Shown here piece after piece: positions 30,425 through 61,196 of a stretch of 64,000 nucleotides of DNA (its first letter is position 1; each line of letters begins with the position of its first letter). Made by a program: the position numbers and the translations under genes. The stretch spans positions 647,412-711,411 of the forward strand of contig CAWGFP010000009.1 of the NCBI GenBank assembly GCA_963821905.1, in the 5' to 3' direction. This DNA is from Thermoanaerobaculia bacterium (GTDB lineage: Bacteria > Acidobacteriota > Thermoanaerobaculia > Multivoradales > JAGPDF01). Below the pieces are notes generated by a model. It saw nothing but the letters and a program-made list of their open reading frames with translations. It searched no databases and was not told the DNA's origin.

Positions 30425-33132
30425 ATGATCGGATCGCGTCTAGGCCCGTACGAGATTACCGCCAAGCTAGGCGAAGGCGGCATGGGCGAGGTCTGGCGCG
30501 CGACCGACTCGCGGCTGCGGCGAGAGGTGGCGCTGAAGCTGTTGCCGCCGGCGTTCATTGGCCCGATCCCGAACGCCTCGCCCGCTTCGAGCGCGAGGCG
30601 CAGCTGCTGGCGCAACTGCATCACCCCAACGTGGCGTCGATCTTCGGTATCGAAGAGTCGAGCGGCGAGCGCGCGCTGGTCATGGAGCTGGTCCCCGGTC
30701 CGACGCTCGCCGAGCGTCTGGCGGCGGGCCCGATGCCGTTCGCCGAAGCGGCGCCGATCGCCGTGCAGATCGCGCAGGCGCTGGAAGCGGCACACGAGAA
30801 GGGCATCGTTCACCGCGATCTCAAACCGCAGAACATCAAGGCCGCGCCCGACGGCGCCGTGAAGGTACTCGACTTCGGCCTCGCCAAGGCGATGGACCCC
30901 GCTGGCACCGCTTCCGCCGCCGACCTGGCGCGTTCCCCCACGATGATGCAGTCGCCGACTCTGACCGCGGTCCACGGCACGCAACTCGGCGTGATCCTCG
31001 GCACGGCGGCCTACATGGCGCCCGAGCAGGCGCGCGGCGGGGCGGTCGACAAGCGGGCCGACATCTGGGCGTTCGGCGTGGTGCTCTACGAGATGCTTGC
31101 CGGCCGCTCGCTCTTCGCCGGCGAGACGGTGAGCGACACGCTCGCCGGCGTGCTCAAGACCGAGGTCGATTTCGCGCGCTTGCCGCCCACGGTTCCTTCG
31201 GGCGTTCGCCAGCTCCTGCGCCGTTGTCTGGAGCGCAATGCGAAGAACCGCTTGCACGACATCGCGGACGCGCGCATCGTGCTCGAGGACATCCTCGCCG
31301 GGCGAGGCGACGGCGACGCGGTGGCGGCTGCCTCTCTGCGGCCGGCGAGCCGCGGTTGGAAACTGGCCGCGCTGGCCCTCGTCGCTGGAGTGCTCGCCGG
31401 CGTCGTCGCCGCGCTGCTGTGGAGCAGCCGGAGCTCGGCCGAACCGCGGCCCTCGAAGCTCGCGCGCTTCGAGATCAGGGCACCGGAGAAATCCGGGATC
31501 ATTCCCGGCCTGGCGCTGTCGCCCGATGGCCGGCACTTGGCGTTCGTGGCCAGCGACGAAGTTGGTGAGCCAACGCTCTGGGTGCGACCGCTCGACTCTC
31601 TGGAAGCTCGCCAGCTGCCCGGCACCGAGGGCGCTCGCCTGCCTTTCTGGGCGCCGGACAGCCGGCGGATCGGCTTCTTTGCCCAGCGCACCCTCAAGTG
31701 GATCGACTCCCGCGGCGGCACCCCGCTCGATCTCGTGGCGACCCCTACGGTCCAGGATGTGCGCGGTGGCGCCTGGGGTGCGGACGACACGATCATCTAT
31801 TCGCCGGGCTTCGTCGGGCCGCTTCTCGCGATACCGGCGCGCGGCGGAGCGCCCATGCCGGCGACGGCGCTGCCTGCCGACGGCTCGCTGGGCACCATGC
31901 GCTTCCCGTCGTTTCTTCCCGACGGCCGCCGCTTCGTCTTCTACGCCTCGGCCGGCACTGGAACCGAGCCGGGGTCGATCCATCTCGGGCGGCTCGGCTC
32001 GTTGGAAACCAAGCTGCTCGGTCCCGCCACTTCGACTGCGGTTTTCGCGCCGCCCGGATATCTGGTCTACTGCCGCGGCGACGCGCTCGTCGCCCAGGCC
32101 TTCGACGATCGCCGTGAGGAGCTGGTGGGCGATCCCGTCCCTCTCGGCATCACGATGGGCGGCTCGGTCGCGGTATCCGGCCAGCGCTCGCTGGCCGCGG
32201 CGAGCGACGGCACCCTCGTCTATCGTTCCGACAAGCGCGGCGTGAGCGAAGTTGTGTGGGCCGACCGCAGTGGCAAGGTGCTGGAGTCGGTGACCGGCGT
32301 CGGCGACACCTGGCACTACGCTCCGCGGTTGTCGCCCGACGGGCGCTCGATGCTGGTCGCGCAGTACCAGAGCAACGGCAAGCTCGGGCAGTTCTGGGTG
32401 CACGACCTCGAGCGGCGCGTCGCCAGCCGCCTCGCCGCCGACGAAAGCGACAGCTACGTCGGTACCTGGCTGTGGCCCGACGGCCGCGAGGTGCTCTACA
32501 ACTGCGGCACCCATGGTGGCGGTGCCGCCGTCTGCCGTGTGGCCCTGGACCGCCCTGGCGAACGACGAATGTGGTCGGACTCCATGCAGTCCTCGCTGCC
32601 GGTCTCGTCGACCCGTGACGGGCGCCGCGTGCTCATCGAACAGAGCAACCCCGAAGGCCGCCTGTCGCTCTGGCTCGGTGATCTCGAGAGCGACGGCCCT
32701 CTCCAGCGCCTCACCCCGGAGGGCGTGGCGGAAGGCGCCGGCGATCTCTCTCCGGACGGCCGATGGCTCGCCTACATGTCCGATGCGGCGGGCGAGCTCG
32801 CAGTCTTCGTTCGGCGCCTGGACGGCAGCGGCGCGATCCGCATCTCTGCTACCGGCGGTACGCAGCCGGCCTGGCGAAGGGACGGCCGCGAGCTCTTCTA
32901 CGTGGATGCTCGGGGCCGGTTGGTCGCGGTGCCGATCACGTCCGGAGATGAGCTTCGTCCGGGCGCGCCGACCGTCCTCTTCGACGCGCGGCTCGAAGAA
33001 GCCGGCGATCGCCAGTACGACGTCTCGGCCGACGGCCAGCGATTCCTGCTCAACCGGCGGCTCGCAGCCGACGACGCGCCGCCGGTGGTGGTGCTCGGTT
33101 GGTCGGCGCTGATCGACACCGAGAGCCCCTGA
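30425..33132 (+). CDS. Membrane Ser/Thr protein kinase with extracytoplasmic TolB/PD40-like beta-propeller (ectodomain class 1); one frame break
   Basis: [77 protein letters not shown]. Repeated SPDGR / PDGRR motifs, ending [27 protein letters not shown]...[10 protein letters not shown]. The break near 30560 falls between ORF 30425..30862 and the real part of ORF 29854..33132. Confidence 0.85.
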
Positions 33133-40440: not shown

Positions 40441-42693
40441 TCAGCTCCCTGCCTTGGGTTCTGGATAGAGCTTCTCGAACTCCGGCTCGCCGTGGAGCAT
40501 CGCGAGGTCGGGGTCGCGGCGCGCCCAGTCGCGTCGCGGAAGCCGGCTCGCCATGCCTTGGCCAGCGCGTCCAAGGCCTCCGTCTTCCTGCCGAGCTTGC
40601 AGAAGGTGCAGGCGGCGTTGTAGAGCACCGTCGCCTCGTTGGGGCGCAGCGACCATCGCCAGGTCGGTCTCGCGCACGGCGTCCTCGCTCCGTCCCTCGT
40701 CGGCGTAGGCGATGGCCAGCAGGATGCGCGCGCGCGCGTCCTCGGGGACCTCCCGCAGGTGGGTCTCGAGGACCTGGATCTGGCGCTGCCGCATGTTCCG
40801 CAGCGCCTCCTGCTTGCCCAGCGCGCCGAGCGCGTTGGTGATCGGGACGTAGACGTTGTAGTCGGTGCCGCTCGACTCGATGGCCTGCGTCGGCGATGTC
40901 CGCCACCTCCTGGTACCGGCCGGCGGCGAACAGCGCAGCGCAGCAGCAGGTAGTAGGCGCCCTCGGTGTCGCGCTTGCGCGCGATCACCGGCGCACGAAA
41001 TCCGTCGCGCCTCCTCGTACTCGCCCCGGGCGTAGAGGATCCAGGCCTGCGCGATCTTCGCCTCGGGCAGCTCCGGCTGCAGAGCGCACCGCCTGCTCCG
41101 AGCCGCCCGGGCGCGCTCGATCCAGGTGTCCAGCTTGTCGTAGTTGTAGTGATACAGGGCGCAGACGTTGGCGATCGCCGCATAGGCGAGCGCGAAGCCC
41201 GGGTCCTGCGCCACCGCGTTCTCGAACATCTGCAGCGCGAACTCCGAGTCCTGCCGGGTCAGCCGGCGGGCGTAGCTCTTGCCGCTGCAGGTAGAGGTCG
41301 TAGGCCTGCAGGTTCTCGGTCGGCTTGGCGGCGAGCGCCTGCTTGCTCCTGCGGCGTCAGCGTGATGCGCAGCGCCTCGGCGATCTTGCGCGCGATCTCG
41401 TCCTGCACCTCGAAGACGTCCTTCATCTCGCGGTCGTAGCGCTCCGACCAGAGCGGGAAGTCGGTCTGCGTGTCGATGAGCTGGGCGTTGATTCGCAGCC
41501 GCTCGCCCGCGCGCCGCAGGCTGCCCGTCAGCACGCACGCCGGCCCGGAGCTGCTGGCCGATCTGGACCGCCGTCACCGGCTTGTCGCGGTAGGCGAGCA
41601 CGGTGGTGCGCGAGAAGATGTTCAGACCCTTGATCTTCGACAGCTCGGTGATGATGTCCTCGGTGATCCCGTCGCGGAAGTACTCGTCTTCCTTGACGCC
41701 CGACAGGTTCTCGAAGTAGAGCACCGCGACCGAGCGCTGGTCCTGGCCCGCCACCGCGCTGTCGGAGCGACCCTTCGAGTCGGAGAGCTCGGCCGCCCGG
41801 CGCCGGACCGAGCCGGTGTCGCGTTTGAGGCGCAGGAGATCGGTCTTCAACTCGGTGGCGCTCTGGTAGCGCAGGTTGCGGTCCTTCTCGAGCGCCTTCG
41901 CGAGGATCCGGCCGAGCGCCGGCGGCAGCGCCGGGTTGACCTCCACGAGCGGCTTCGGATCGCGGTTCAGGATGGCGTCGAAGACCACCGCCTGGGTGTC
42001 GCCCTGGAACGGCATCGAACCGGTCGCCATCTGGTAGAGCACCGTGCCGAACGAGAACAGGTCGGTGCGGGCGTCGGTCAGCTGGCCGCGCGCCTGCTCC
42101 GGCGACATGTAGTGCACCGTGCCGAGCACCGTACCAGCGACGGTCAGGTTCGTCCCGTCGAAGCGCTCGATCGCGGTGTCCGAGAGCGTCACGCCGGCGG
42201 CGGGGAGCGCGCGGTCGAACTTCGCCAGCCCGAAGTCGAGGATCTTCACCTGGCCGCTCGGCGAGACGAACAGGTTTGCCGGCTTGAGGTCGCGGTGCAC
42301 GATCCCCTTCGAGTGCGCCGACTCGAGCGCGTCGGCGATCTGGATCGCCAGGTCGAGCAGCTCGTCGATCTCGAACGGCTTGCGGCCCATCCGCTGCGCC
42401 AGCGTTTGGCCCTCGAGCAGCTCCATGACGATGAACGATCGCCCCTCGTGCTGCTCGATCGCGTGCACCGTGCAGATCCCGGGATGATTCAGCGACGACG
42501 CCGCGCGCGCTTCGCGCTGGAATCGCTCGAGCATCGGCGCGTCCTGCTGCAGCGCGTCGGAGAGGAACTTGAGCGCCACGCGGCGGCCCAGCCTCGAGTC
42601 CTCCGCCTCATAGACGACGCCCATGCCGCCGGCGCCCAATTGGCGTTCGATCCGGTAGTGCGAAACCGTCCTGCCGACCAGGGAGTCCGCCAT
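40441..42693 (-). pseudogene. Soluble Ser/Thr kinase-TolB-N-like module-TPR protein, tandem copy C; 3' half frame-broken as assembled
   Basis: Within ORF 40441..42789 the start [44 protein letters not shown] is at 42693. The kinase and the beginning of the module are intact ([61 protein letters not shown]). From about 41530 downstream, real TPR pieces ([79 protein letters not shown]) alternate with out-of-frame stretches. Confidence 0.8.
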
Positions 42694-42694
42694 G

Positions 42695-44932
42695 TCAGCT
42701 TCCCGCCTTGTTTTCGGGATAGAGCTTCTCGAACTCCGGATCCCCGTGGAGCGACGCGAGGTCGGGATCGCGGCGCGTCCAGTCGGCATCCTGGTAGCCG
42801 GCGTTCCAGGCTTTCTTCAGGGCTTCGATGGCTTCGCTCTTGCGGCCGAGGAAACAGAAGGTGCATGCCGCGTTGTAGAGCACGGTCGCTTCGTTCGGGC
42901 GCAGCACCATCGCCAGGTTCGCTTCCCGCACCGCGTCGTCCGGCCGTGCCTCCTCGGCATAGAGGCTGGCGAGCAGGATGCGGGCGCGCGCGTCCTCGGG
43001 AACCTCGCGCAGGTGGGTCTCGAGGGCTTGGATGAGCCGCAGCCGGATGTTGCGCGCTGCTTCCGGTTTGCCCAACGCGCCCAGGGCGTTGAGGATCGGC
43101 ACGTAGACGTTGTAGTCGGTGCCGCTCGCCTGGATGGCCTCCTCGGCGACTTCGGACACTTGCTGGTAGGAGCCCGAGCTGAAGAGCGCGCGCAGCAGGA
43201 GATAGTAGGCGCCTTCGCAGTCACGCTTGCGGGCGATCGCGGCCTTGACGATCCGCACCGCGTCTTCGTGCGCGCCACGCGCGTAAAGAGTCCACGCCTG
43301 AGAGACCAGGACTTCCGGGAGGTCGGGCGCCAGGGCGACGGCGCGCAGGGAGGCCGACTGCGCGCGGTCTATCCAGTCGGCGCCCAGCCCGGACCAGTAG
43401 TGCACGTGAGCGCAGCCGTTGGCGATCGCGGCGTAGGCGAGCGCGAAGCCGGGATCGAGCAGCACCGCGTTCTCGAACATCTGGAGCGCGAACTCCATGT
43501 CCTGGCGAGTCAATCGCCGGGCGTAGCTCCGGCCGCGCAGGTATAGATCGTAGGCCTGCAGGTTCTCGGTCGGCTTCTGGGCGAGCTCGGCCATCTCTTG
43601 CGGAGAGAGCGTGATGCGCAACGCGTCGGCGATCTTGTGGGCGATCTCGTCCTGGACCTCGAAGATGTCCGACATCTCGCGGTCGTAGCGCTCGGACCAG
43701 ACCGGGAAGCCAGTGGCGGCGTCGACCAGCTGGGTGTTGATGCGCAGGCGGTTGCCCGCCCGCCGCAGGCTGCCCTCGAGCGCGAAGTCGGCGCGCAGTT
43801 GCCCGCACACCTGGGCGGCGGTCACCTTCTGGTCGCGAAACGCCAGCACGGTGGTGCGCGGGAAGACGTTGAGGCCCTTGATCTTGGACAGGTCGGTGAG
43901 GATGTCCTCGGTGATGCCGTCGCGGAGGTACTCGTCTTCCTTGACCCCGGAAAGGTTCTCGAAATAGAGCACGGCGATGGAACGCTGCGAGCGCTTGGCC
44001 GTGCCGGATTTCGAATCAACCAGCGCCGCGGAGCTCGAGCGGACGCCTTCGAGCTTGCGCTTGAGGCGGAGAAGATCGGTCTTCAGCTCGGTCGCCGACT
44101 GGCAGCGCAGGCTGCGGTCCTTCTCGAGCGCCTTCTCCAGGATCTGGCCCAGGGCCGGCGGCAGAACGGGATTCACATCCGCCAGCGGCCGAGGGTCGCG
44201 GTTGAGGATCGCCTCGAACACCACCGCCTGGGTGTCGCCCTCGAAGGGCGGTGAGCCGGTCGCCATCTGGTAGAGCACGGCGCCGAGCGAGAACAAGTCG
44301 GTGCGCGCGTCGGTGAGCTGGCCGCGGGCCTGCTCCGGCGACATGTAGTGGATGGTGCCGAGCACCGTGCCGGCGACCGTGAGGTCGCCGCCGCTGGCAT
44401 GCGCCACGCCCGCCGCGACGGTCTCGTCGTTGGCGCTTCGCGCGCGGTCGATCTTCGCCAGGCCGAAGTCGAGGATCTTCACCTGACCTCGCGGATTGAT
44501 GAAAATGTTGGCCGGCTTCAAGTCGCGGTGCACGATCCCCTTGGCGTGCGCCGATTCGAGCGCGTCGGCTATCTGGATGGCGATGTCGAGGAGCGTCCCC
44601 ATTTCCATCGGCTGCGGACCGATGCGCGCCGCGAGCGGCTCGCCTTCCAGCAGCTCCATGACGATGAACGACTGCCCCTCGTGCTGTTCGATGGCGTGGA
44701 CGGTGCAGATGCCGGGATGGTTGAGTGCCGAGGCGGCGCGCGCCTCGCGCTGGAAACGCTCCAGCATCGGCGCGTCCTGCTGCAGGCCGTCCGAGAGGAA
44801 CTTGACCGCGACCCGGCGGTCGAGGCGCGAGTCCTCGGCCTCGTAAACCACGCCCATGCCGCCCTGTCCTAGTCGCCGGACGATCCGATAATGCGAGAAA
44901 GTCCGGCCGGCCAGGGAATTCGAATTTGACAC
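42695..44932 (-). CDS. Soluble Ser/Thr kinase-TolB-N-like module-TPR protein, tandem copy D (intact reference copy)
   Basis: Intact 745 aa. GTG start at 44932 with GGAGGA 5-6 nt upstream. [52 protein letters not shown]. No hydrophobic TM segment. [37 protein letters not shown]...[21 protein letters not shown] region to [28 protein letters not shown]. Confidence 0.9.
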
Positions 44933-45138: not shown

Positions 45139-47842
45139 TTGCCGCAGGACCTCGTCGGTCGGTCCATCGCGCACTACCGCATCACCGGCCAGCTCGGCCA
45201 GGGCGGCATGGGTGAGGTCTACCGCGCCCGGGACACCAAGCTCGAGCGCGACGTGGCGATCAAGGTGCTGCCGGCGGGGCTGGCGCAAGATGGTGAGCGC
45301 TTGCAGCGCTTCGAGCGCGAGGCGCACCTCCTCGCTTCACTCAACCATCCGCACATCGCAGCCATCCACGGCGTCGAGGACGTGGAGGGCACCAAGGCCT
45401 TGATCCTCGAACTGGTCGAGGGCCCGACGCTTGCCGAGCGGTTGGAGCACGGGGCGTTGCCGCTGGCGGAGAGCGTCGCCATCGCGCGGCGGATCGCGGA
45501 GGCGCTCGAGGCGGCGCACGCCAAGGGGATCGTGCATCGCGATCTCAAGCCGCAGAACGTCAAGGCGCCTCTCGACGGCCGGGTGAAGGTGCTCGATTTC
45601 GGGCTCGCCAAGGCGCTGGATCCGATCGCGGGCGGCTCGTCCGCGGCCTCGCAGCTTGCGCATTCGCCGACCATCACGGTGGGCGCGACGTTGCAGGGCG
45701 TGATTCTCGGCACCGCGGCGTACATGTCACCCGAGCAGGCCAAGGGGCTGCCGGTCGACAAGCGTACGGACATTTGGTCGCTCGGGGTGCTGCTGCTCGA
45801 GATGCTCACCGGCAAGCGGGTGTTCGACGGCGACACCGTGACCGAAACGCTCGCCGCCGTCCTGCGGGCCGAGATCCCGCTCGGCGAGCTGCCCGCGGGA
45901 ACACCGGGCTCGATCCGCCGCTTGCTGCGCCGCTGTCTCGAGCGCGACCCGCGCGAACCGGCTGCACGACGTCGCCGACGTGCGCATCGTGCTCGCGGAC
46001 CTCGAGGCGGGACGTTCCGACGACTCCCTGCCGGCGGCCGTTGCGGCGAGTGCGGGCCGCCCGCGCTCGCGGTCTCTGCTCGCGGTTCTCGCTCTCGCAC
46101 TGGTGGCAGCGGCGTTCGCCGCAGGTTGGGCGCTTCGCCGGCCGCCGGCGCGCCCGGCGCCCGCCATCGCAGACGAGGCCGTCGTGCGCAAGGTGACCTT
46201 CGAGCCGGGGCTCGAGGCGGAGCCATCCTTTTCGCCCGACGGCAACTATCTCGCCTACACCACGAATGCGCGCGGCTCGCTCGACATCGCCGTCTTGCCG
46301 GTCGGCGGCGGCCAGGTACGCTACCTCGCCGATTCCCCGGCGGACGAAGCCCAGCCGGCCTGGTCGCCGGACGGCACCCGCGTCGCCTTTACCGCCGCGC
46401 GCGAGGACTCGGGCCGGCTCCGGCCGCTCGGCGGGTTGGGGGTGTTGACGCCGTTTGTACAGGGACACGGCGGCGACATCTTCCTGATTCCAGCGCCGGG
46501 AGGGACACGCGTGCGGCTGGTCGACCGCGCCAGCTATCCGACCTGGTCGCCGGACGGCCAACAGGTCGCCTTCATGAGCGATCGCGGCGGCCAGTGGGAT
46601 ATCTGGCGTATCGCGGCGCGTGGCGGTGAGCCGGCGCCGGTGGTGGAGGACGAGGAGATCGACTATCACCCGGCCTGGTCGCCGGACGGGCGCTGGATCG
46701 CCTTCGCTTCGGGTCCCGGGTTGCGCGTGGCCCCAGCAGACGGCAGTGCCGCGGCGCGGCTTTTGGTTGCGGCGGGCTCTGCGGTCCTTTCGCCGAGCTG
46801 GTCGGCCGACGGCCGCTGGCTCTATTTTTCGTGGAACCGGACCAGCTCCAAGGCGAGCCTCTGGCGCCTCGAGTTCCGGCCGGACGGCTCCGCAGCGTCA
46901 ACACCCGAGCGGATCTCGCTGGGTGGGCAGAGCGATGTCGATCTGGCGATCGGCGCCGGTGGACGGCGGCTCGCCTGGAGCCGGGCCGAATTCGCGCCCG
47001 ATCTTTGGGAGCTGGAGCGAGCGAGCGGCGAGCTGCGCCAGTTGACCGCCACCAGCAGTGGCGAGGACTACCCGCATCTCAACCCAGACGGCCGCTTGTT
47101 GGTCCATACCTCCGACCGCGCTGGGCGTGTCGGCATCTGGGTTCTCGACCGGCAGGACGGGACGCTGGAAGCAATGACGCCGCCCGAGCTCGGCGCGGGT
47201 AGCCCGCGCTGGTCTCCGGACGGGCGCGCGGTGGCCTATAGCTCTGCCGACGAGGCGGACCACGGAAGAGCGGTCGTCCAGGAGCGCGGCGGGCTCACGG
47301 CACGGGTGTTGTCGAGGACGCCGAGGGCCGGCGACGTGGTGTCCGGTCCGCAATGGTCCCGCGACGGGGGACGAATCGTCTTCGTGCGCGGCTCGCCGGG
47401 TCATGGACAGGAGCTCGTGGTGACGAATCTCACCGGTGGCGAAACGGTGCTGGCTAGTTTCCCCGAGGAAGCGAACGCGGCCTTCCCCTGCTTTCTCGGC
47501 AAGTCGACCGTCGTTTACCAACAGGAGACCGGTGGCGAGCCTCGGCAGATCTGGTCGATTCCCGCTGCCGGCGGGGAACCGCGGCAGCTGACCCACGGCA
47601 CGGACGAGCTCTCCCATCCCCAGGGCTCGCCGCTCGATGACGACGAGATACTGGTGGTGATCGATCACAAGAACGTCGCCATCGTGTCGGCGTCGCGAGG
47701 CGACGTGACCCTGCTCACCGACTTCGACGATTCGACCGTCATGGTGGACTACCCGAGCTGGTCCGCCGACGGCCGGCGAATCGAGTTCAGTCTCACCCGC
47801 AAGGTCGGCGATCTCTTCCTGCTGGAGAATCCGTCGCCGTGA
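45139..47842 (+). CDS. Membrane Ser/Thr kinase with TolB/PD40 beta-propeller ectodomain (array gene E, ectodomain class 3); one frame break
   Basis: TTG start after [60 protein letters not shown]. The break near 45955 reads [40 protein letters not shown]. Propeller: [84 protein letters not shown] (ORFs 45139..46629 + 45980..47842). Confidence 0.85.
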
Positions 47843-50593
47843 TCGGTTCCCGGCTCGGACCTTACGAGATCACCGCCAAGCTGGGCGAGGGCGGGATGGG
47901 GGAGGTCTATCGGGCCACCGACTCGAAGCTCAAGCGCGAGGTGGCGATCAAGGTGCTGCCGGCGGCGTTCACCGCCGATCCAGAGCGCCTGGCGCGCTTC
48001 GAGCGCGAGGCGCAGGTGCTGGCGGCGCTCAACCATCCCGCACATCGCGGCGATCTACGGCGTCGAGGAGACCGACGGCGACCAAGGCGCTGGTGCTGGA
48101 GCTGGTCGAGGGCGAGACGCTCGCGGACGCGCCTCGCCCGCGGGCCGCTGCCGATCGACGAGGCGCTCGCCATCGCCCGCCAGATCGCCGAGGCGCTCGA
48201 AGCGGCGCACGAGAAGGGCATCGTCCACCGCGACCTCAAGCCCGCGAACGTCAAGCTGACCGCCGACGGCACCGTCAAGGTGCTCGACTTCGGGCTGGCC
48301 AAGGCGTTGGAGCCCGCGCGCTCGCTCCGTCGCTCTCGCCGTCGGCCTCGCCGACGCTCATGCATTCGCCGACGCTCACCGCCGCCGGCACGCAGCTCGG
48401 GGTGATCCTGGGCACCGCGGCCTACATGGCGCCGGAGCAGGCGCGAGGCGGCCGCGGTCGACAAGCGGGCCGACATCTGGGCTTTCGGCGTGGTGCTCTA
48501 CGAGATGCTCACCGGCGAGCGCGCTCTTCGCCGGCGAGACGGTCAGCGACACCCTCGCCGGCGTGCTCAAGAGCGAGATCGACTGGTCGCGCGGCTGCCG
48601 GCCGACGACGCCGGCGCGCGCTGCGCCGCTCGTGCGGCGCTGCCTCGAGCGCAATCCGAAGAACCGCCTGCACGACATCGCCGACGCCCGCATCGTGCTC
48701 GACGAGATCGCGCGCGGCGCGCGTCGGCGAGGCCGCCGCCGTGCCGTCCCCGACCGGCATCGAGCGCCGCGCACCGTCGCGGCGATCGCCGCCGTCGCCG
48801 CGTTGGTCGCTCGTCGCTCGGCTGGCTCGCTGCCGGCCCGGCTTCGGCGACCGCGCCGCCGGCCGCGAGCGCGCGCTGGGCGCTCGCGCTGCCCGACGGC
48901 GTACGCCGTTTTCGGCCGTGGAAGTCCCGCAGCTCGCGATCTCGCCGGACGGCCGGCTGCAGGTCGCGGTGGTCGTCCGACGCGAGCCGGCAGTGCACGC
49001 GTCTCCTGCTGCGCTCGACGCGACGATCTTGCGCCGCGCTTCATGCCCGCGACCGAGCGGCGCCGCGACGCCCTTCTTCTCGCCGGACGGCGCCTGGATC
49101 GGATTCTTCCACGACAACGCGCTGTGGCAAGATCGCCGGTGGCCGGCGGCGCGCCGGTCCACCTCGCAGACGCCTCGACGCAGACCCGCGGCGCCACGTG
49201 GAGCCGCGACGGCTTCATCTACTACGTGCCGGACTTCGCGGTCGGCGCTGTCGCGCGTCTCGCAGAACGGCGGCACGCCGACGCCGCGTGACGCGCCTCG
49301 AGAGGCGCGCGACGAGCGCACCCACCGCTGGCCGCAGGCGCATGCCCGGACGGCAGCGCCGTGCTCTTCACCTGCGACAGCTAGGCCTCGACCGAGTTCT
49401 ACGACGACGCGCGCATCGAGGCGGTGCGGCCGGCGACCGGCGAACGCACGGTGCTGCTCGAGAACGCCAGCATGGCGCGCTACGTCCGCCGACGCGGCAT
49501 CTGGTCTTCGCCCGCGGCGGCTCGCTCTACGCCGTCGCTCTCGATCCGCGGGCGCTCACGGTGCACCGGCGCGCCGGTGCTGGTGGCGCAGGACGTGGCG
49601 ACCGACGAGGGCTCGGGCGCGGTGCAGTTCGCGACGTCGGCGAGCGGCGCACGGCCTGTGGGCGCCCGGCGATAGCTCCGGCGTCGACGCTCGTGTTGTG
49701 GGTCGATCGCCACGGCGCCGAAACCGCGGTCGGCAGTGCCGGAGGCGCCCTACAACGAGACGGCATTGTCCCCCGACGGCAAACGGGTCGCTGCTGGTCG
49801 GCGGCGAGGGCAGGCGTCGCCGATCTGTGGGTGGTCGACCTGGAACGCGGAGCGCTCAGCCGCCTGACCAACGGCGAGGTCGGTCGCCAGCCCGGTGTGG
49901 ATCCCCGGACGGCCGGCAGCATCGCCTACGCGCTGCGCGCGGCGAACCGCCGAATGGCAGTTGGCGCTCCGCGCGGCCGACGGCAGCCGCGATGCCGAGA
50001 ATGCCTCGCTCGCCGGAGCGCGTCCGCTCACGCCTACCGACTCACGCTGGCCGAGCGCCCTCATCTACAGCACCGATCCAAGCCCGACGGCTCTGGCGTC
50101 GACCTCTACCGGCTGCCGCTCGACGGCGATCGCCAGCCCGAGCTCCTCCTCGGCGGACCGTTCAGCAAGGACGAGGCCGTGGTTTCGCCAGACGGTCGCT
50201 GGCTCGCCTACACCTCGAACGAGAGCGGCGCCCCGAGCGTCTTCGTGCGGCCCTATCCCGCGGGCGACGGACGCTGGCAGATCTCGACCCCGGTGCGGCG
50301 TCGAGCCGCGCTGGAGCCACGGCGGACGGGAGCTGTTCTATCGCGAGGCGGCGTCGCTCTATCGCGTGGCGGTCGACACCAGGAGCGGGTTCTCGGCCGC
50401 CCGCCCCGAGCGCCTGCTCGATCGCGTCGGGAAGCGCGTCGGCGTCCACACCTACTCATTGTCGCCGGACGACAGCCGGATCTTCACCAGACGCACACGA
50501 GAGGCGGCCGAGGCCACCGTTCGCGTCCTCCATTTCGAGCAGGGGTTTGCGCGCCGGCTCGACGCGCTGACCCGCGAGGGCCGCGCGCCGTGA
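47839..50593 (+). pseudogene. Membrane Ser/Thr kinase with beta-propeller ectodomain (array gene F, class 1); many frame breaks as assembled
   Basis: GTG 47839 overlaps the E stop (GTGA). [67 protein letters not shown] is followed by fragments in all frames: [122 protein letters not shown], ending [23 protein letters not shown]. Confidence 0.75.
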
Positions 50594-53203
50594 CCCTGGC
50601 GCCGGGTACCCGGCTTGGACCCTATGAGGTCACCGCCAAGCTGGGAGAAGGCGGGATGGGGGAGGTGTATCGGGCCACCGACTCGAAATTCAAGCGCGAG
50701 GTGGCGATCAAGGTCCTGCCGGCGGCGTTCACTGAGGACAAAGAGCGCCTGCAGCGCTTCGAGCGCGAGGCGCAGCTCCTGGCGCAGCTTCACCATCCGC
50801 ACATCGCTTCGATTTTCGGGCTCGAGGAGTCGGGCGGCGTGCGCGCTCTGGTCATGGAGCTGGTGGACGGGCCCACCCTGAGCGAGCATCTGGCCCAAGG
50901 GGCGCTGCCGCTCGATGAGGCGCTCGCGATCGCCCGCCAGATCGCCGAGGCGCTCGAAGCGGCGCACGAGAAGGGCATCGTCCACCGCGACTTGAAGCCA
51001 CAGAACATCAAGTTGGCGCTCGACGGCTCGGTGAAGGTGCTCGACTTCGGGCTCGCCAAGGCGATGGACGCCGCCAGCTCGTCGGTTGTTGTCGACCCGG
51101 CGCGCTCGCCGACCATCATGAATTCGCCGACCCTCACCGCGGCCGGCACGCGGCTCGGCATGATCCTCGGGACCGCCGCCTACATGGCGCCCGAGCAGGC
51201 CAAGGGAGCGGCGGTCGACAAGCGCGCCGACATTTGGGCTTTCGGGGTGGTGTTGTTCGAGATGTTGAGCGGCCGGCGTCTGTTTTCCGGTGACAGCGCG
51301 CCGGAAACGCTTGCCGAGGTGCTCAAGGCGCCGATCCCGCTCGAGGATCTGGCCGATGTGGCCCCGGCCGCCATCCGCCAGCTGGTCGGGCGCTGCCTTG
51401 AACGGAACCCGAAGAACCGACTGCATGACATCGCCGACGCCCGCATCGTGCTCGATGACGTGATCCGCGGCGTCGGCGCGGGCGATCTGGAAGGCGCGAG
51501 TGCGTCCCGCGGCGGTGTCTCGCGGCGCGAGCTCGTGGCCTGGGTCGGACTTGCCGCGAGTGCGCTCGCTCTCGGCCTGTTCGCGTGGCGGCGCCCGGAA
51601 GTGCCGCCGCCCAGCGTGCCTCGATTCACCAAGATCACCTACGCGCCCCAGTTCATTTCCAACGCACGCTTCGCGCCCGACGGCCGGACGGTGATCTTGA
51701 GTGCGGCGCTGCAAGGCAACGACAGTGCGCTGTTCGTCCGTCGCCCCGAGGATCCGCAACCGCGCGTTCTCGGCAGGTCCGACCTCCAGCTGCTGGCGGT
51801 TTCCTCGAAGGGGGAGGTCGCGCTGCTCACCGGCGCGCATTACTGGGTGCATCGCACCTATCTGGGAACGCTCGCCCGCATGCCGATCGCGGAAGCGTCG
51901 CCGCGCGAGATTCTCGAGGACGTCACCGCGGCCGACTGGTCTCCCGACGGCGCCGAGCTGGCGGTCATCCGGCAGGTCGAGGGCAAGAGTCGCCTCGAAT
52001 ACCCGGTCGGCAAGACGCTCGCGGAATCGAACGGCTATCTGAGCGACGTGCGGGTGTCCCCCAAGGGCGACCGCATCGCCTTCATGCCGCACGCCTTCGC
52101 CAACGACAACCGGGGTCCGGTGGTGGTGGTCGACCGCGCGGGGGCGGAGATCACGCGATCGCCCGAGTATTGGGGCACCGAAGGGATCGCTTGGTCCGCC
52201 GACGGCGAGACGGTGCTCTTTTCGGCGTCGGCCAGAGGGGACGACTACTCGATTCTCGCTCTCGCCATGGACGGAACGACGCGGGATGTGCTCACCGCGC
52301 CGGCGAGACTTTTCTTGCACGATACGTCCGCGGACGGGAAGCTGCTGCTCTCGACCAGCGAAGAACGCGCCGGCGTGTTCGCTCTGCTGCCCGGCGCGAC
52401 CGGCGAGCGCGAGTTGCCTTGGCTCGACCAGTCCTCCTGGCCGGTTCTGTCGCGAGACGGGCGGAGCCTGATCTTCGGCGATGAAACCGCTCTGTCAGGC
52501 CATCTGTACTCGGTTTTCTATCGCGCCGCCGACGGTTCGCCGCCGGTGCGGCTGGGCGACGGCTTCGGGAGCGACCTTTCCCTGACGGCACCGCGGTGGT
52601 GGCGGTAGTCATGGACAATCCGCCTCGAATGATGATCTATCCGACCGGGCCCGGGGAACCTCGTGACATCTCGGTCGCCGGGTTGGTGGCTTACGAGTAC
52701 GAATCGGCGCGTTTCCTGCGCGACGGACAGAGCGTTGCGGTGTGCGGCACCGACTCCGGCCAGATCTCGCGCTGCTGGCTGCGCGATCTCGCCGGCGGCG
52801 AGGCGCGGGCCGTGACGCCGCCGGGCACTCGCCGAGGCAGGGTCTCCCCGGACGGTACTGCGGTCGTGGCGCGCGGACCGGACGGGCGTTATCGACGCTA
52901 CGCGATCGACTCGCAGAGCATCGGCGACGGCGTCCCAGTCGATGGCCTCGACATGCGGGACGAGATTGGCGGGTGGAGCGCCGACGGCCGATCTCTCATC
53001 GTCTATCGCTCGGCGGAGATTCCCGCGCGCGTCGATCGCCTCGACCTCGCGAGCGGTCGGCGGACCGCGCTGCGCGAGCTGGCGCCCGCCGACCGGGCCG
53101 GGGTGGTCAGCATCGAAGGCATCTCGTTCTCGGTGGACGAGAAGTTCTACGCCTACGGGGTCATGCGCAAGGCCGGCAATCTCTTCGCCGTCGAGGGTGT
53201 GCG

Positions 53204-53207
<4 letters not shown>
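50590..53207 (+). CDS. Membrane Ser/Thr kinase with beta-propeller-like ectodomain (array gene G, class 2); one frame break
   Basis: GTG 50590 overlaps the F stop (GTGA). [76 protein letters not shown]. Ectodomain [15 protein letters not shown]...[10 protein letters not shown]...[10 protein letters not shown]...[10 protein letters not shown]. The single break at about 52580 is a CCC run where LSPDG needs CCCC, and it joins the real part of ORF 48490..52608 to ORF 52596..53207. Confidence 0.85.
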
Positions 53208-55810
<2,603 letters not shown>

Positions 55811-55853
55811 GCCAGCTTCCGGGCGCCGCCGGCCACGTTGAGGCGATCCGCCC

Positions 55854-58520
55854 GTGACTCTCGCGCCGGGCATCCGCCTCGGCTCCTACGAGATCACCGC
55901 CAAGCTGGGCGAGGGCGGCATGGGGGAGGTCTATCGCGCGACGCGACACGCGGCTGAAGCGCGAGGTGGCGATCAAGGTGCTGCCGGCGGCGTTCACCGC
56001 GCGACCCGGAGCGCCTCGCGCGCTTCGAGCGCGAGGCGCAGCTCGCTGGCGCAGCTGCACCATCCGAACATCGCCTCGATCTACGGGCTCGAAGGAGTCC
56101 GGGCGGCACGCGCTGCGCTGGTGATGGAGCTGGTCGACGGGCGAGACGCTGCGCGGAGCGACTGGCGCGCGGGCCGCTGCCGCTCGACGAGGCGCTCGCC
56201 GATCGCGCGGCAGATCGCCGAGGCGCTCGAGGCGGCGCACGAGCAGGGGCATCGTCCATCGCGACCTGAAGCCCGCGAACGTCAAGGTTCGCGCCGACGG
56301 CACGGTGAAGGTGCTCGACTTCGGCCTCGCCAAGGCGATGGACCCGGCCGCGGATCGGCCGCGATCCGCGAGCCGCGAGCTCATGAACTCGCCGACGCTC
56401 ACGCAGCCCGCGGGCACCGCAGATCGGCGTGATCCTCGGCACCGCGGCCTACATGGCGCCCGAGCAGGCGCGCGGGCAGGCCGTCGACAAGCGCGCCGAC
56501 ATCTGGGCGTTCGGCGTCGTGCTCTACGAGATGCTGACCGGCACGCGCGCTGTTCGACGGCGAGACGGTCACCGACGTGCTCGCGGCGGTGCTGCACGCG
56601 CGAGCTCGACTGGCGGCGCTGCCGGCCGAGCACGCCGCGCGCGCTGCGGCGCGCTCGCTCGCGCGCTGCCTCGAGCGCGATCCGCGAGCAGCGCCTGCGC
56701 GACATCGGCGAGGCGCGCAGTTGCGCTCGAGCGAGATCGTGAGCGCATCCCAGGCGGAGTCGGTCGTGGCGCCGCGTCGCGGAGCGTCGCGCTGGCGCTC
56801 GCCGTGGCGGCCGCTGCGGGAATCGCCGCGGCCGTTGGAATTCTGGCGCTCGCCGGCGGCTGCGTCTCGCCGAGCGGGAGCTCCGCGCAAGGCAGCGCGA
56901 GGGCGGCGCCGCGTCGGACGGAGATCCTGCGGCCGCGCGGTCGTCGATTCGTCGAACGCCGCGATCTCGCCGGACGGCAGCGAGGTCATCGCCTACGACA
57001 CGACGCGTCGAAGCCGGCGCTCCTGCGCCGCTCACTCGAGAGCTTCGAGATCCGCGCGATTCCAGGCTCTGAGAGCTCTTACAACTCCTTTCTACTCTCC
57101 CGACGGCCGCTCCATCGGCTTTTTCAGCGGCCGCCAGATCTCTTCTCGATCTCACGGCTCACCGGCGCCGCTTGCGAGGCGGACGGCTCGCCGCCGGAAG
57201 CTGGGGTGAGGACGGCACGATCGTGTTCTCGAGCCAGCCGCCGTGGGGCGGTCTCGCGGCTGGTCTTTGGCGGGTGCCGCGGCGGGCGGCGATGCCGTAC
57301 GGCTCACCACGGTCGACGCCGCGAAAGGCGAGCGTCAGCACGTCTATCGCAAGTCTGCCGACGGACGCAACGTGCTCTTCACCGTCGCAGCCAGGCCAAG
57401 GACATCGCCGTCGTGCGCCGGCCGGCGGCGCTCGCGAACCGTTCTGGCAACTCGCTCGCGGGCGTTTCGTGCGCTCGGGGCATCTCGCATACTGGGACGA
57501 GCTGCGGGGACGGCTCTCGGCTGTTCGCTTCGATCTCCAGCGCATGTCAACTGTCGGCACACCGGTCGAGCTCGGATCGAGCTGAACACCACCGGGGACA
57601 CCATCGTTTCGTACGACGTCTCGACAACGGCACCTGATCTACTCGTTCGGCGGCATGTTCGGCGGCGACTTCGTGATCGACATCGTCGATCGCGCAGGCC
57701 AGCGGACTCCGGTTGTCGAAGAGCGCGCCTCGTGGGTCACCGCTGTCGCCCAGTGGCGCCAGCTGCTGTTGCGGAGGTCGGCCAGCCGACTGCTCGCTCT
57801 GGCTGTTCGATCTCGACCGGCGCTCTCTCGCCGCCTCGGTCTCGACGGCGATCTCCACAACCGCTCTGGCTGTCGGATGGCGAGCGTTTCCTGATCAGCC
57901 GGGACCGTCCGACAAGAGGTTCCGCCAGGTCTTCGAGCAGCGGCTCGACGGCGGCGCCGCGCTCGAGCGGGCTTTCGCGACCGATTCGGCACGGTCGCCG
58001 ATCCGCTTCGCCGGACGGGCGCTTCGTCGCGATCACCCACGAGGACCGGCGCGATCGCAACGACATCATGGTCTACGACCGGCTGAGCAGTGAGACGAAC
58101 CGTTCCTCACCAGCGAGTACGACGAAGACACCGGCGTTCTCACCGGACGGGAGCCTGCTCGCCACGCCGCGAACGATGGGCGGAGCGAGATCTACGTGCG
58201 GCCGTCCCGGGCCAGGCGGCAGTACTCGGTCTCGAACCATGGCGGCACCGGACCGGTCTGGTCGCGCGACGGCCGCGAGCTCTTCTACGCCGCAGGCGAC
58301 AGATGATGCGGGTCGCGATCGAGCGCGCGCCGCGCTTCTCGGCGAGCGCTCCGCGATCTCTTAGAGCCCGGACTTCGCGGGAACGGCCGGCAACTACGAC
58401 GTCTGCCGGACGGCGGCGGCTTCGTCATCGTGCGCCGCGGTGCGGAACGCCGTCGACGCGCACGCTGCGCGTCGTCTTCGACTGGTTCGCGAGTCGAGCG
58501 TTGGCGCAGCGGTCAGATGA
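55854..58520 (+). pseudogene. Membrane Ser/Thr kinase with beta-propeller ectodomain (array gene I, class 1); many frame breaks as assembled
   Basis: GTG 55854 lies 43 nt after the H stop. [30 protein letters not shown] is followed by fragments: [154 protein letters not shown]. The stop is assigned to the TGA at 58518-58520 (ATGA overlap with J), which is tentative. Confidence 0.7.
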
Positions 58521-61196
58521 CGTCACGCGGTCAGCTCGGTTAGAGATCACGAGCTGGGCGAGGGCGGCATGGGGGTCTACGGCGCGGACTCGCGGCTCGG
58601 CCGCGAGGTGGCGATCAAGGTGCTGCCGGCGGCCCTGGCGCGCGACGCCGAAGCGCTCCAGCGTTTCGAGGCCGAGGCGCGCGCGGTGGCGGCGCTCTCG
58701 CATCCCAACATTCTCTCGATCTTCGATTTCGGCACGGTGGGGGAGACCGCCTTCGCGGTCACCGAGCTCCTGGACGGCCAGACCCTGCGCGAACAACTGG
58801 AGGGTGGTCCGTTGCCGGTGCGCAAGCTGCTCGACCTCGGCGCGCAGATCGCGCGGGGTCTCGCCGCGGCGCACGAGCGCGGCATCGTGCATCGCGATCT
58901 CAAGCCCGCGAATCTCTTCTTGACCCGCGACGGCCGCGTGAAGATCCTCGACTTCGGTCTCGCCAAGCAGGAGGTTCCAGGGGCTGGCGCCGGGGCGCCG
59001 ACGATAGGACCGGCGACCGCGCCGGGCACGGTGCTCGGAACGGTGGGCTACATGTCGCCCGAGCAGGTGCGTGGCGAGCCGGCCGATGCGCGTTCCGATC
59101 TCTTCTCGCTCGGCGCGGTGCTCTACGAGATGGCGACCGGCCGGCGCGCCTTCGAGCGCGCGACGTCGGCCGAGACGATGACCGCGATCCTGCGCGAGGA
59201 GCCGGAAGGGCTCGAAACGTCGAGCACGCTCTTGCCGCCGGCGCTGCAGCGGATCGTTCATCATTGCCTGGAGAAGAATCCTCGCGAGCGGTTCCGCTCC
59301 GCGGAGGACCTGGCTTTCGCGCTCGACAGCCTGGCCGGCGGCGCGACGTCTTCGGCGAGCGCCATGGCCGCGCCGGTGCACACCCCGAGCCGCGGATCGC
59401 GCGTCTGGGTGCTCGCGGCGGTCGCGCTGCTGACGGCGGCCGCCGCGTTCTTCGCCGGCCGTGCCAGCCGCACCGCGACCAAGGCATCCACCGCCGTCCT
59501 CCCGCCGGTCGCGGCCGCTTTCCAGCAACTGACGGACTTCCGCGGTGTCGAATCGAACCCGACGCTGTCGCCAGACGGCAAGGACGTCGTCTACGTGAGC
59601 GACGGCAGCGGCAACCTCGACATCTACCGGCTGCGGGTCGGTGGCGGCAAGGCGACGCTGCTGACCGCCGACAGCCCCGCCGACGATTCGATGCCTGCCA
59701 TCTCCCCGGACGGCGAACGCATCGCGTTTCGCTCGGAACGCGATGGTGGCGGGATCTTCGTCATGGGCGCGACCGGCGAGTCGGTTCGGCGGCTCACCGA
59801 TTTCGGCTACGACCCCAGCTGGTCACCGGACGGCCGCGAGATCGTGGTCGCGGGCGGGGTGGCCAATTACCCCACCGATCTTTCGGCCAGCGCCACCGAC
59901 CTTACGGCGGTTGAGGTCGAGACCGGCAACCGTCGTGTGCTCGGCAAGGGCATCAACGCGATGCGGCCTCGCTGGTCGCCCCACGGCCAGCGCATCGCCT
60001 TCTGGACCCGCCGCGCCCCGAGCGGCCAGCGCGACATCTTCACCGTCGCCGCCGACGGCTCCCAGGCGAGCGCGGCGCCGACAGACGTCACGAACGACAG
60101 CGCTCTCGACTGGAGCCCTGCCTGGACACCCGACGGCAGCGCGCTCTATTTTTCGAGCAACCGCGGTGGCACCATGAACCTTTGGCGAGTGCCCATCGAC
60201 GAGGCGAGCGGCCAACCTTCGGGCGAGGCGCGGCCGATGACGGCGCCCGCGGCCTATTGCGCCGAGTTGAGCTTCGCCAACGATGGGCGCCGTTTCGCGT
60301 ACGCCACGCTGGACTGGCGCAGCCGACTGGTCCGGGCGCCCTTCGATCCGCGCGCTCTTCAATTGAGCGGCCCGCCCCAAACCGCTTTCGAGACGGGCAG
60401 GCCGGTGCGCGACCATCAGTTGTCGCCCGACGGCAAGTCGATCGTCTTGACCCAGATCGGCGCCCAGGAAGACATCGCGGTGGCGCGGGTCGACGGCAGC
60501 GGCTATGTGCGGCTGACCGATGACAAGGCGCGCGACCGCGGCCCCAGTTGGGCGCCGGACGGCAAGGAGATCCTTTTCTATTCCGACCGGGCTGGCGGCT
60601 ATGAGCTCTGGCTGATTCGTCCCGACGGCAGCGGACTCCGTCAGCTCACCCATCAAGGCAACGGGTCGACCAACTTCCCGCAATGGGCGCCCGACGGATC
60701 GCAGATCGCGTTCACTTCGTTCGGCATCGGCTGGCACCTGCTCGACATGCGGTCGCCGGGCGAGCCTGCGCAACCACGCTTGCAGCCGGCCGTGGCTGGC
60801 GACGCGGATTTCTGGCCGCTTTCGTGGACTCGGGACAGCGCGCGGATCGCCGGCCTGGCGGTGCAACGGGACGGCCGTGCGCGAGGCATTGTCGTGTACG
60901 ACGTGGCCAGCCAGACCTACGCGCCGGCGCTCACCGAGCCGATCCGATTCGCCTGGGCCAAATGGCTGGGCGACAGCCGCCATTTGGTAGTGCGCCGCGA
61001 GCGCGGCATCACCCTTGTCGACACGACGACGCATCAAGTGAATCCGCTGGTTTCGGTCGGCGGTTACTGGATTGGTTCGAGCCTCGACGTCTCGTCGGAC
61101 GACCGCTGGATCACCTGGACCGAGACCGCCACCGAGGGCGATCTCTGGCTGGCCGACCTCGATTCGGCCGGTGCCGGGACCAGCAAGGTGAAATAG
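58517..61196 (+). CDS. Membrane Ser/Thr kinase with TolB/PD40 beta-propeller ectodomain (array gene J, class 3; different kinase subtype); frame breaks only in the first ~50 nt
   Basis: ORF 58569..61196 is intact: [68 protein letters not shown]. Propeller: PTLSPDGKDVVY, PAISPDGERIAF, PSWSPDGREIVV, PRWSPHGQRIAF, PAWTPDGSALYF, HQLSPDGKSIVL, PSWAPDGKEILF, PQWAPDGSQIAF. The upstream ATG 58517 (MTSRGQLG..EITS.LGEGG) needs two frame corrections near 58535-58555. Confidence 0.8.

Follow-up and report, generated by a model that had tools for sequence, protein, structure and literature searches.

Kinase halves alike within genomes and sensor halves alike across genomes in a tandem receptor kinase array of a Thermoanaerobaculia bacterium

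PknD of Mycobacterium tuberculosis consists of an N-terminal Hanks-type kinase, one transmembrane (TM) helix and an extracellular beta-propeller (PMC1847690). Expanded Ser/Thr kinomes, in which periplasmic propellers (WD40) or TPR domains act as sensors, have been described in Myxobacteria and in 'Ca. Uabimicrobium' (Ca., Candidatus) of the Planctomycetota, and the species-specific Pkinase clades in those kinomes were ascribed to 'duplication and/or recombination' (PMC11032199). A survey of prokaryotic concerted evolution described the phenomenon as rare (PMC6053082). In the present study, we analyzed a stretch of 64,000 nucleotides (nt), hereafter the window, from the genome of a Thermoanaerobaculia bacterium of the Acidobacteriota (G000; a genome of the soil type, assembled into 16 contigs that total 4.22 Mb at 70% GC), which corresponds to G000:C9:647412-711411. 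The subject is a set of six co-oriented receptor Ser/Thr kinase genes, E to J, which an earlier note made from the sequence alone had placed at positions 45139-61196 of the window and which were found there by both open reading frame (ORF) analysis and a genome scan. Their ectodomains fall into three classes, designated A (E and J), B (F, I and the distant gene K30) and H (G and H).

The window genes have in common with PknD the architecture and the presumed logic of a cytoplasmic kinase, a TM segment and an outside propeller sensor, whereas PknD is a single gene with a single six-bladed NHL-type propeller and the genes described here carry a TolB/PD40 double propeller of ~12 blades and occur in arrays of 20-30. 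TolB itself (PD40 repeats, PF07676), to which the ectodomains of classes A and B have sequence matches, is a soluble component of the Tol-Pal system that has one propeller and no kinase. The difference from kinomes of the 'Ca. Uabimicrobium' type is that the kinase clades are here set against the cross-species sensor orthology of the same genes, which points to concerted evolution and not to recent duplication. In known domain-limited concerted evolution, paralogues likewise exceed orthologues in similarity over a single part of the gene, and the recognition part stays distinct, but the present case concerns another gene family in another phylum, is old and partial, with a synonymous divergence (dS) between paralogues of 0.5-0.8, and involves ~20-30 tandem genes rather than 2-3 copies. 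The papers that we searched contained neither such a comparison of kinase clades with sensor orthology nor an account of concerted evolution limited to one domain in a bacterial receptor Ser/Thr kinase array, only the general remark (PMC11032199) and the survey (PMC6053082) mentioned above. The kinase array adds a new case of concerted evolution limited to one domain.

The evidence that carries this conclusion comes from a comparison with two genomes of another genus in the family of the window genome, in both of which this gene family likewise forms tandem arrays, namely, G020 (C11:359-434 kb, 14 intact genes) and G006 (C2:1.26-1.36 Mb, 25 genes). G003 was left out of the comparison because its contig ends inside a gene. 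On the ectodomain tree of the three genomes, the genome label changed 33 times, which is no better than random, and many one-to-one ectodomain pairs were strongly supported (Table 1); on the kinase tree, the label changed 13 times, and a number that low was reached in 0 of 200 shuffles. Twenty-five kinases of G006 and G020 formed one clade (support 96), and their ectodomains span classes A, B and H. In the approximately unbiased (AU) test with the ectodomain data, this 25-gene kinase clade was rejected with a difference in log-likelihood (delta lnL) of 3283, and so was the G020 kinase clade (delta lnL 1261). With the kinase data, the test rejected a clade of H and its ectodomain orthologue (delta lnL 66, p=0.009) and one of K30 and its orthologue (delta lnL 77, p=0.011). 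Furthermore, in 11 of 13 genes the kinase shared 71-82% identity with the closest paralogue of its own genome, compared with 49-73% for the orthologue defined by the ectodomain. The relation was reversed in the ectodomains, which were 26-37% identical to this paralogue, compared with 36-61% for the orthologue. The two exceptions were E and J, the orthologues of which match in both halves with 76% kinase identity, so that the differing kinase types of E and J are old. The difference between these two genes is not evidence of a recent exchange, because each has an orthologue in another genus with the same kinase type and ectodomain.

Within the window genome, in which 93 kinase loci were detected, the kinase tree contained an array-type clade (support 99) made up of 21 class B genes, both class H genes and four class A genes (E, C9_722153p, C9_749857p and C6_22960m). 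The J kinase was found in another clade, together with C9_766583p, the contig C11 genes that belong to class A and a number of TPR-linked kinases. This is the placement proposed in the earlier note, by which E has the kinase subtype of F to I and J one near the TPR kinases; the motif HRDLKPQN that had been given for F and I has to be corrected, as both carry HRDLKPAN. On the ectodomain tree, class A was split from class B (support 99), and J, 722153, 749857, 518992 and 766583 formed a subclade with a support of 100. The kinase data rejected this J ectodomain subfamily (delta lnL 223, p=2e-49) and a monophyletic class A (delta lnL 210), and the ectodomain data rejected the J-type kinase clade (delta lnL 273). 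A separate cluster of five kinase genes on contig C6 (G000:C6:12006-23832) gave a similar picture, in which the kinases formed one clade (support 99) that was rejected by the ectodomain data (delta lnL 541) and the ectodomains were of four orthogroups, one of them class A, pointing to local homogenisation among neighbours. Thus, the separate kinase and ectodomain phylogenies, which the note had suggested building and checking for incongruence, were strongly incongruent, and the AU test rejected congruence both ways.

The two comparison arrays also contain genes that appear to represent swaps of a whole half. In G006 (C2:1268746), g06_1268746p has a class H ectodomain and a J-type kinase, and in G020 (C11:372749), g20_372749p has an array-type kinase and a C-terminal part that matches the C-terminal region of the TPR kinases of the window.

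The position at which the two halves part was located in the full-length alignment of class B. The identity to the best paralogue exceeded that to the orthologue over columns 0-260, which correspond to the kinase domain, and the relation reversed from column ~280, in the linker and TM segment, most clearly in columns 480-580; the switch point is the end of the kinase domain. In G020, the N-lobe and the catalytic loop were the most homogenised parts, and the kinase similarity was graded and patchy. The kinase dS was 0.79-0.98 between orthologues, and its median between paralogues was 0.67 (minimum 0.46) in G020 and 0.78 (minimum 0.57) in G000. The ratio of nonsynonymous to synonymous divergence (dN/dS) was roughly 0.3-0.75 in the ectodomain and roughly 0.2-0.3 in the kinase; the sensors can therefore be called 'diversifying', as had been proposed, in the sense of faster divergence but not in that of positive selection.

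Both exact repeats that had been reported, of 63 nt between F and G and of 42 nt between G and H, are present as described, and both are maximal (Table 1). Exact runs were evaluated in 351 pairs of array-type kinases against a site-heterogeneity model that keeps the divergence of each pair and the variability of each column. The longest exact run per pair had a median of 26 nt, and a run with p<0.01 was found in 25 of the 351 pairs, compared with 3.5 expected. The F-G run ranked second. The first, of 108 nt, is shared by C9_724858p and C9_730231p (G000:C9:724858-731076, outside the window), of which the overall identity is only 79%; with P<2.5e-6 it was family-wise significant, and it is the strongest single candidate for a conversion tract in G000. 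The 62-nt run between G and C9_722153p was also significant (P=1.5e-5 per pair, family-wise 0.005). The 42-nt run of G and H was not significant (P=0.027 per pair) and is no longer than chance allows. The 63-nt run is plausibly a short conversion tract, which is not proof when taken alone. In addition, the pairwise homoplasy index (PHI) test was significant for the G020 kinases (p<0.001, z=-5.5).

Taken together, we consider it probable, at about 80%, that E to J belong to an old, mostly co-oriented tandem array in which the kinase halves have been homogenised by conversion between neighbours and the sensor halves are separate old lineages. Whole-gene duplication would have built the array before the compared genera parted. 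The 3' two-thirds of the genes, which code for the ectodomain, would since then have been inherited vertically as separate lineages with one-to-one orthologues across genomes, and in most members the ~850 nt at the 5' end, which code for the kinase, would have undergone repeated partial homogenisation. The mechanism may be gene conversion, a non-reciprocal homologous recombination, here of the RecA type, that acts over short tracts between neighbouring genes of the array. Its restriction to one half may be passive, in that the kinase DNA is 70-80% identical with exact runs of ~25-110 nt that could seed recombination, and the DNA from the juxtamembrane linker on would be too diverged to do so. 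E and J, at the edges of the six-gene block, have retained their own kinase lineages. The inference of gene conversion or module shuffling in the earlier note is thus borne out by the trees and the AU tests as far as a homogenised kinase cassette beside separately evolving sensors is concerned, and it does not extend to a mirror order of the genes, to unrelated ectodomain classes or to the E-versus-J difference.

Several points weigh against this reading. Topology alone cannot separate conversion of the kinase half from replacement of the ectodomain half. The dS effect is modest, and dS itself is compressed by strong codon bias and was computed without a codon-bias model; with paralogue dS of 0.5-0.8, moreover, the homogenisation is old, patchy and partial, not ongoing and complete. 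The F-G run, with P=3.3e-4 per pair, has a family-wise value of 0.11. Seven loci encode the identical peptide of 21 amino acids (aa) that corresponds to this run, with 0-9 synonymous differences (median 5), and because of this sharing and this median, zero differences among 21 pairs are not extreme. As evidence of conversion, the identical runs that had been put forward are accordingly only suggestive in the case of 63 nt and do not go beyond chance in that of 42 nt. The PHI test with the 13 intact array kinases of G000 was not significant (p=0.13). As for the methods, the trees were obtained by a quick search under LG+G4; the groups for the AU tests were named after the trees had been seen, so that the p-values are descriptive, and the likelihood differences are large; and the frameshift-corrected sequences of F and I are approximate.

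The alternative that survives best is an exchange of sensor cassettes, by which the kinase halves would represent the true genealogy, produced by recent lineage-specific tandem duplications, and old ectodomain cassettes would have been recombined in behind them. The incongruence is symmetric and would fit this too, and some whole-half swaps seem to be real (g06_1268746p and g20_372749p). However, dozens of precise replacements would be needed, each of which keeps the one-to-one ectodomain orthology, and a partly collinear order would have to be preserved at the same time (G000 716739-719450-...-727549 corresponds to G020 365427-369993-...-378233). The graded and patchy kinase similarity and the tracts of 60-110 nt also fit short conversion better than an exchange of whole halves. 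We therefore regard cassette exchange as an unlikely explanation for the array.

Somewhat less likely still is an explanation with no recombination, in which purifying selection and a genome-specific bias in codons and amino acids mimic the likeness within genomes and the runs arise by chance in a conserved segment. The position of the 63-nt run within the best-conserved peptide of the domain, the very high GC content at third codon positions (GC3), the PHI result for G000 and the 42-nt run within chance all agree with it. The ectodomains of the same genes, nevertheless, do not cluster by genome, with the 33 label changes equal to random, and a genome-wide compositional bias is therefore not the cause. 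The lower dS of paralogues than of orthologues, the PHI result for G020 and the rejection of orthologue pairing by the kinase data also speak against it, as do the kinases of the five C6 neighbours, which are one clade with ectodomains of different orthogroups.

The assembly required attention because many of the genes are frameshifted. Frameshifts were located by using a frameshift-tolerant protein-to-DNA aligner written for the analysis, with the closest intact paralogue of each gene as the guide. In addition to the events in Table 1, E has one frameshift (near 45956), and the first ~80 nt of J are out of frame; H is the only one of the six with an intact open frame. The events are biased to insertions and form dense blocks in F (47839-50593) and from I into the start of J (55854-58600), with 0-1 in the neighbouring genes, which suggests stretches of poor consensus in a long-read assembly. 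About one-third of the 93 kinase loci are frameshifted, some with 7-12 events, and further window genes are hit too. Homopolymer errors, which are typical of nanopore sequencing, were rejected as the source because the events sit at ordinary sites. Outside the window, rpoB (G000:C8:145064-149300) is broken into two overlapping frames at residue ~893-924, and the CheckM completeness of the assembly is 55%, compared with 88-100% for most relatives. Because of the split rpoB, the low completeness, the hits in unrelated kinase loci and the continuation of the I block into J, the frameshifts are, on this indirect evidence, most likely due to indels introduced in the assembly and not to gene decay. 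True pseudogenes F and I at mirror positions were rejected as the main interpretation on similar grounds, namely, heavy blocks elsewhere, the split rpoB, the I block running into J and the presence of only one stop each in the corrected sequences, which have high similarity to intact paralogues. The assembly is plainly error-rich, but it is very improbable that false kinase identity was created by reads mapped to the wrong paralogue in polishing or consensus, as the decisive pattern is also present in the two independent and better assemblies G020 and G006, random indels lower identity and do not raise it, and the runs are short with differing flanks on both sides.

Two further observations concern the reading frames. 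The TPR-linked kinase at 40441-42789 (-) has an open frame of 782 aa, yet an internal stretch is out of frame with respect to the neighbour at 42695-44932, indicating two compensating frameshifts; open frames at 70% GC are thus no proof of a correct sequence. In J, the glycine-rich loop (58569-58600) reads GEGGMGVY, which is shorter than the GEGGMGEVY of the family, and the residues after it also deviate. This shortening is probably another indel effect and, if real, would impair ATP binding.

Concerning the sensors, BLAST of the corrected ectodomains yielded the three groups, with bit scores of 131 for E-J, ~102 for F-I and 221-234 for G-H and of at most 54 between groups. The three classes that had been proposed are thus recovered as similarity groups, but they are not unrelated, because profile comparison with hhalign connected A with B (E=5e-56, 491 columns), A with H (E=7e-24, 464 columns) and B with H (E=1e-10, over 141 columns only). 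In Pfam, PD40 was detected in E (191 bits in 7 stretches, 1.3e-57), J (165 bits in 6 stretches), K30 (67 bits) and H (22.6 bits, barely over the cut-off of 20.9). In sequence searches, classes A and B hit TolB structures (lowest E=6e-18), and class H, for which no direct sequence match was found in the PDB, is tied to TolB/PD40 through profiles and the predicted fold only. The AlphaFold2 (AF2) model of the H ectodomain, the sole class modelled, had a mean predicted local distance difference test score (pLDDT) of 85.8 and a predicted template modelling score (pTM) of 0.80 and was all-beta with ~46 strands; its best fold matches in the PDB were double-propeller proteins, with low template modelling scores of 0.3-0.4. 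The three classes are homologous over their full length, and all are double beta-propellers of the TolB/PD40 type. Three unrelated folds were rejected on the basis of the hhalign matches, the H model and its fold matches.

Except for G and H, the nearest relatives of the ectodomains lie outside the mirror pairs of the class order 3-1-2-2-1-3 that the earlier note had described. Those of F are C9_711842p and C6_14710m (600+ bits), that of J is C9_722153p (375 bits) and that of E is C11_506952p. E and J, and likewise F and I, are each merely of the same class, and G-H is the only mirror pair of mutual nearest relatives. With the six genes taken alone, a mirror order has a 6.7% probability of arising by chance; within the array of 22 genes, with G and H treated as a single tandem unit, the value is 5.1%. 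An inverted (mirror) segmental duplication was rejected, since the partners other than G-H are not closest relatives, E and J have separate orthologues and the order has a chance of 5-7%. The note had itself argued that the order is not a simple segmental duplication, which stands; the order as such carries no meaning. Because mirror partners are not nearest relatives, it has no mechanistic content and is a coincidence.

E to J are the first genes in a series of 22 receptor kinases, all in the same orientation, which continues beyond the window to the contig end, with the class order ABHHBA BBBABBBTBBBBA ABB. In each of the six proteins, an N-terminal Pkinase domain is followed by a hydrophobic TM segment and then by a C-terminal part of ~550-600 aa with PD40 repeats; judging from these domains, the cytoplasmic kinase would provide the output and the periplasmic propeller would act as the sensor. 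The genome scan detected all six as kinases, and in Pfam, PF00069 (Pkinase) scored 174.5 bits for H and 143 bits for J (curated cut-off, 31.7). The catalytic motifs HRDLKP[QA]N and VK[VI]LDFGLAK are present in all six, and the G-loop is GEGGMGEVY, in E GQGGMGEVY. At the junctions E/F, F/G and G/H, the GTG start of the downstream gene and the TGA stop of the upstream gene overlap as GTGA (47839-47842, 50590-50593 and 53204-53207), which suggests translational coupling in one operon. The gap between H and I is 43 nt, and that between I and J is ~150 nt.

Table 1. Receptor kinase genes and identical runs in the window, and further genes of G000, with ectodomain orthologues in G020 (g20) and G006 (g06)
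Feature	Position	Strand	Description	Basis or remarks	Ectodomain orthologue
E	45139-47842	+	receptor Ser/Thr kinase: kinase domain, one TM helix, class A canonical PD40 double-propeller ectodomain	ORFs, Pfam, frameshift-tolerant alignment	g20_359050p (matches in both halves)
F	47839-50593	+	receptor kinase, class B (K30-type) propeller ectodomain	24 frameshifts	g06_1331245p (F group: F, C9_711842p, C6_14710m; support 100)
G	50590-53207	+	receptor kinase, class H propeller ectodomain	one frameshift near 52581	
H	53204-55810	+	868 aa; Pkinase residues 10-276, TM ~305-327, class H ectodomain	intact frame, Pfam	g20_385760p (53% identity)
I	55854-58364	+	receptor kinase, class B ectodomain	20 frameshifts	
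J	58517-61196	+	receptor kinase, different kinase subtype, class A canonical PD40 ectodomain	intact frame from 58569	g06_1260629p (matches in both halves)
K30	30431-33132	+	distant class B receptor kinase	one frameshift in N-terminal kinase part	g20_400882p
63-nt run, F copy	48172-48234	+	encodes 21-aa segment leading into HRD catalytic-loop motif	identical to G 50929-50991	
63-nt run, G copy	50929-50991	+		also within 62-nt identity to C9_722153p (outside the window)	
42-nt run	G 50758-50799 = H 53366-53407	+			
716739					g20_365427p
741678					g06_1323241p
722153					g06_1334134p
749857					g20_363625p
C6_22960m					g06_1263628p

This study bears on how bacterial kinomes are read and especially on species-specific kinase clades, which are usually taken as a recent lineage-specific expansion of the kinome. 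The sensor halves show that the array predates the genera, and the kinase clades thus stem from concerted evolution. Kinase-only trees can therefore mis-date and mis-count expansions in the Acidobacteriota and possibly in the Myxobacteria and Planctomycetota. For work on this particular assembly, the results are also a warning that apparent pseudogenes are most likely indel errors. Furthermore, the arrays offer a natural system for the study of recombination confined to one domain, comprising dozens of genes from three genomes, in which the boundary at the juxtamembrane linker is sharp. It is conceivable, although we consider it rather doubtful, that the homogeneity of the kinases is upheld by selection because 20-30 propeller sensors feed one output through shared substrates or cross-phosphorylating heterodimers. 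If this were true, the array would represent a combinatorial receptor repertoire and a bacterial counterpart of clustered protocadherins or of plant receptor-kinase clusters.

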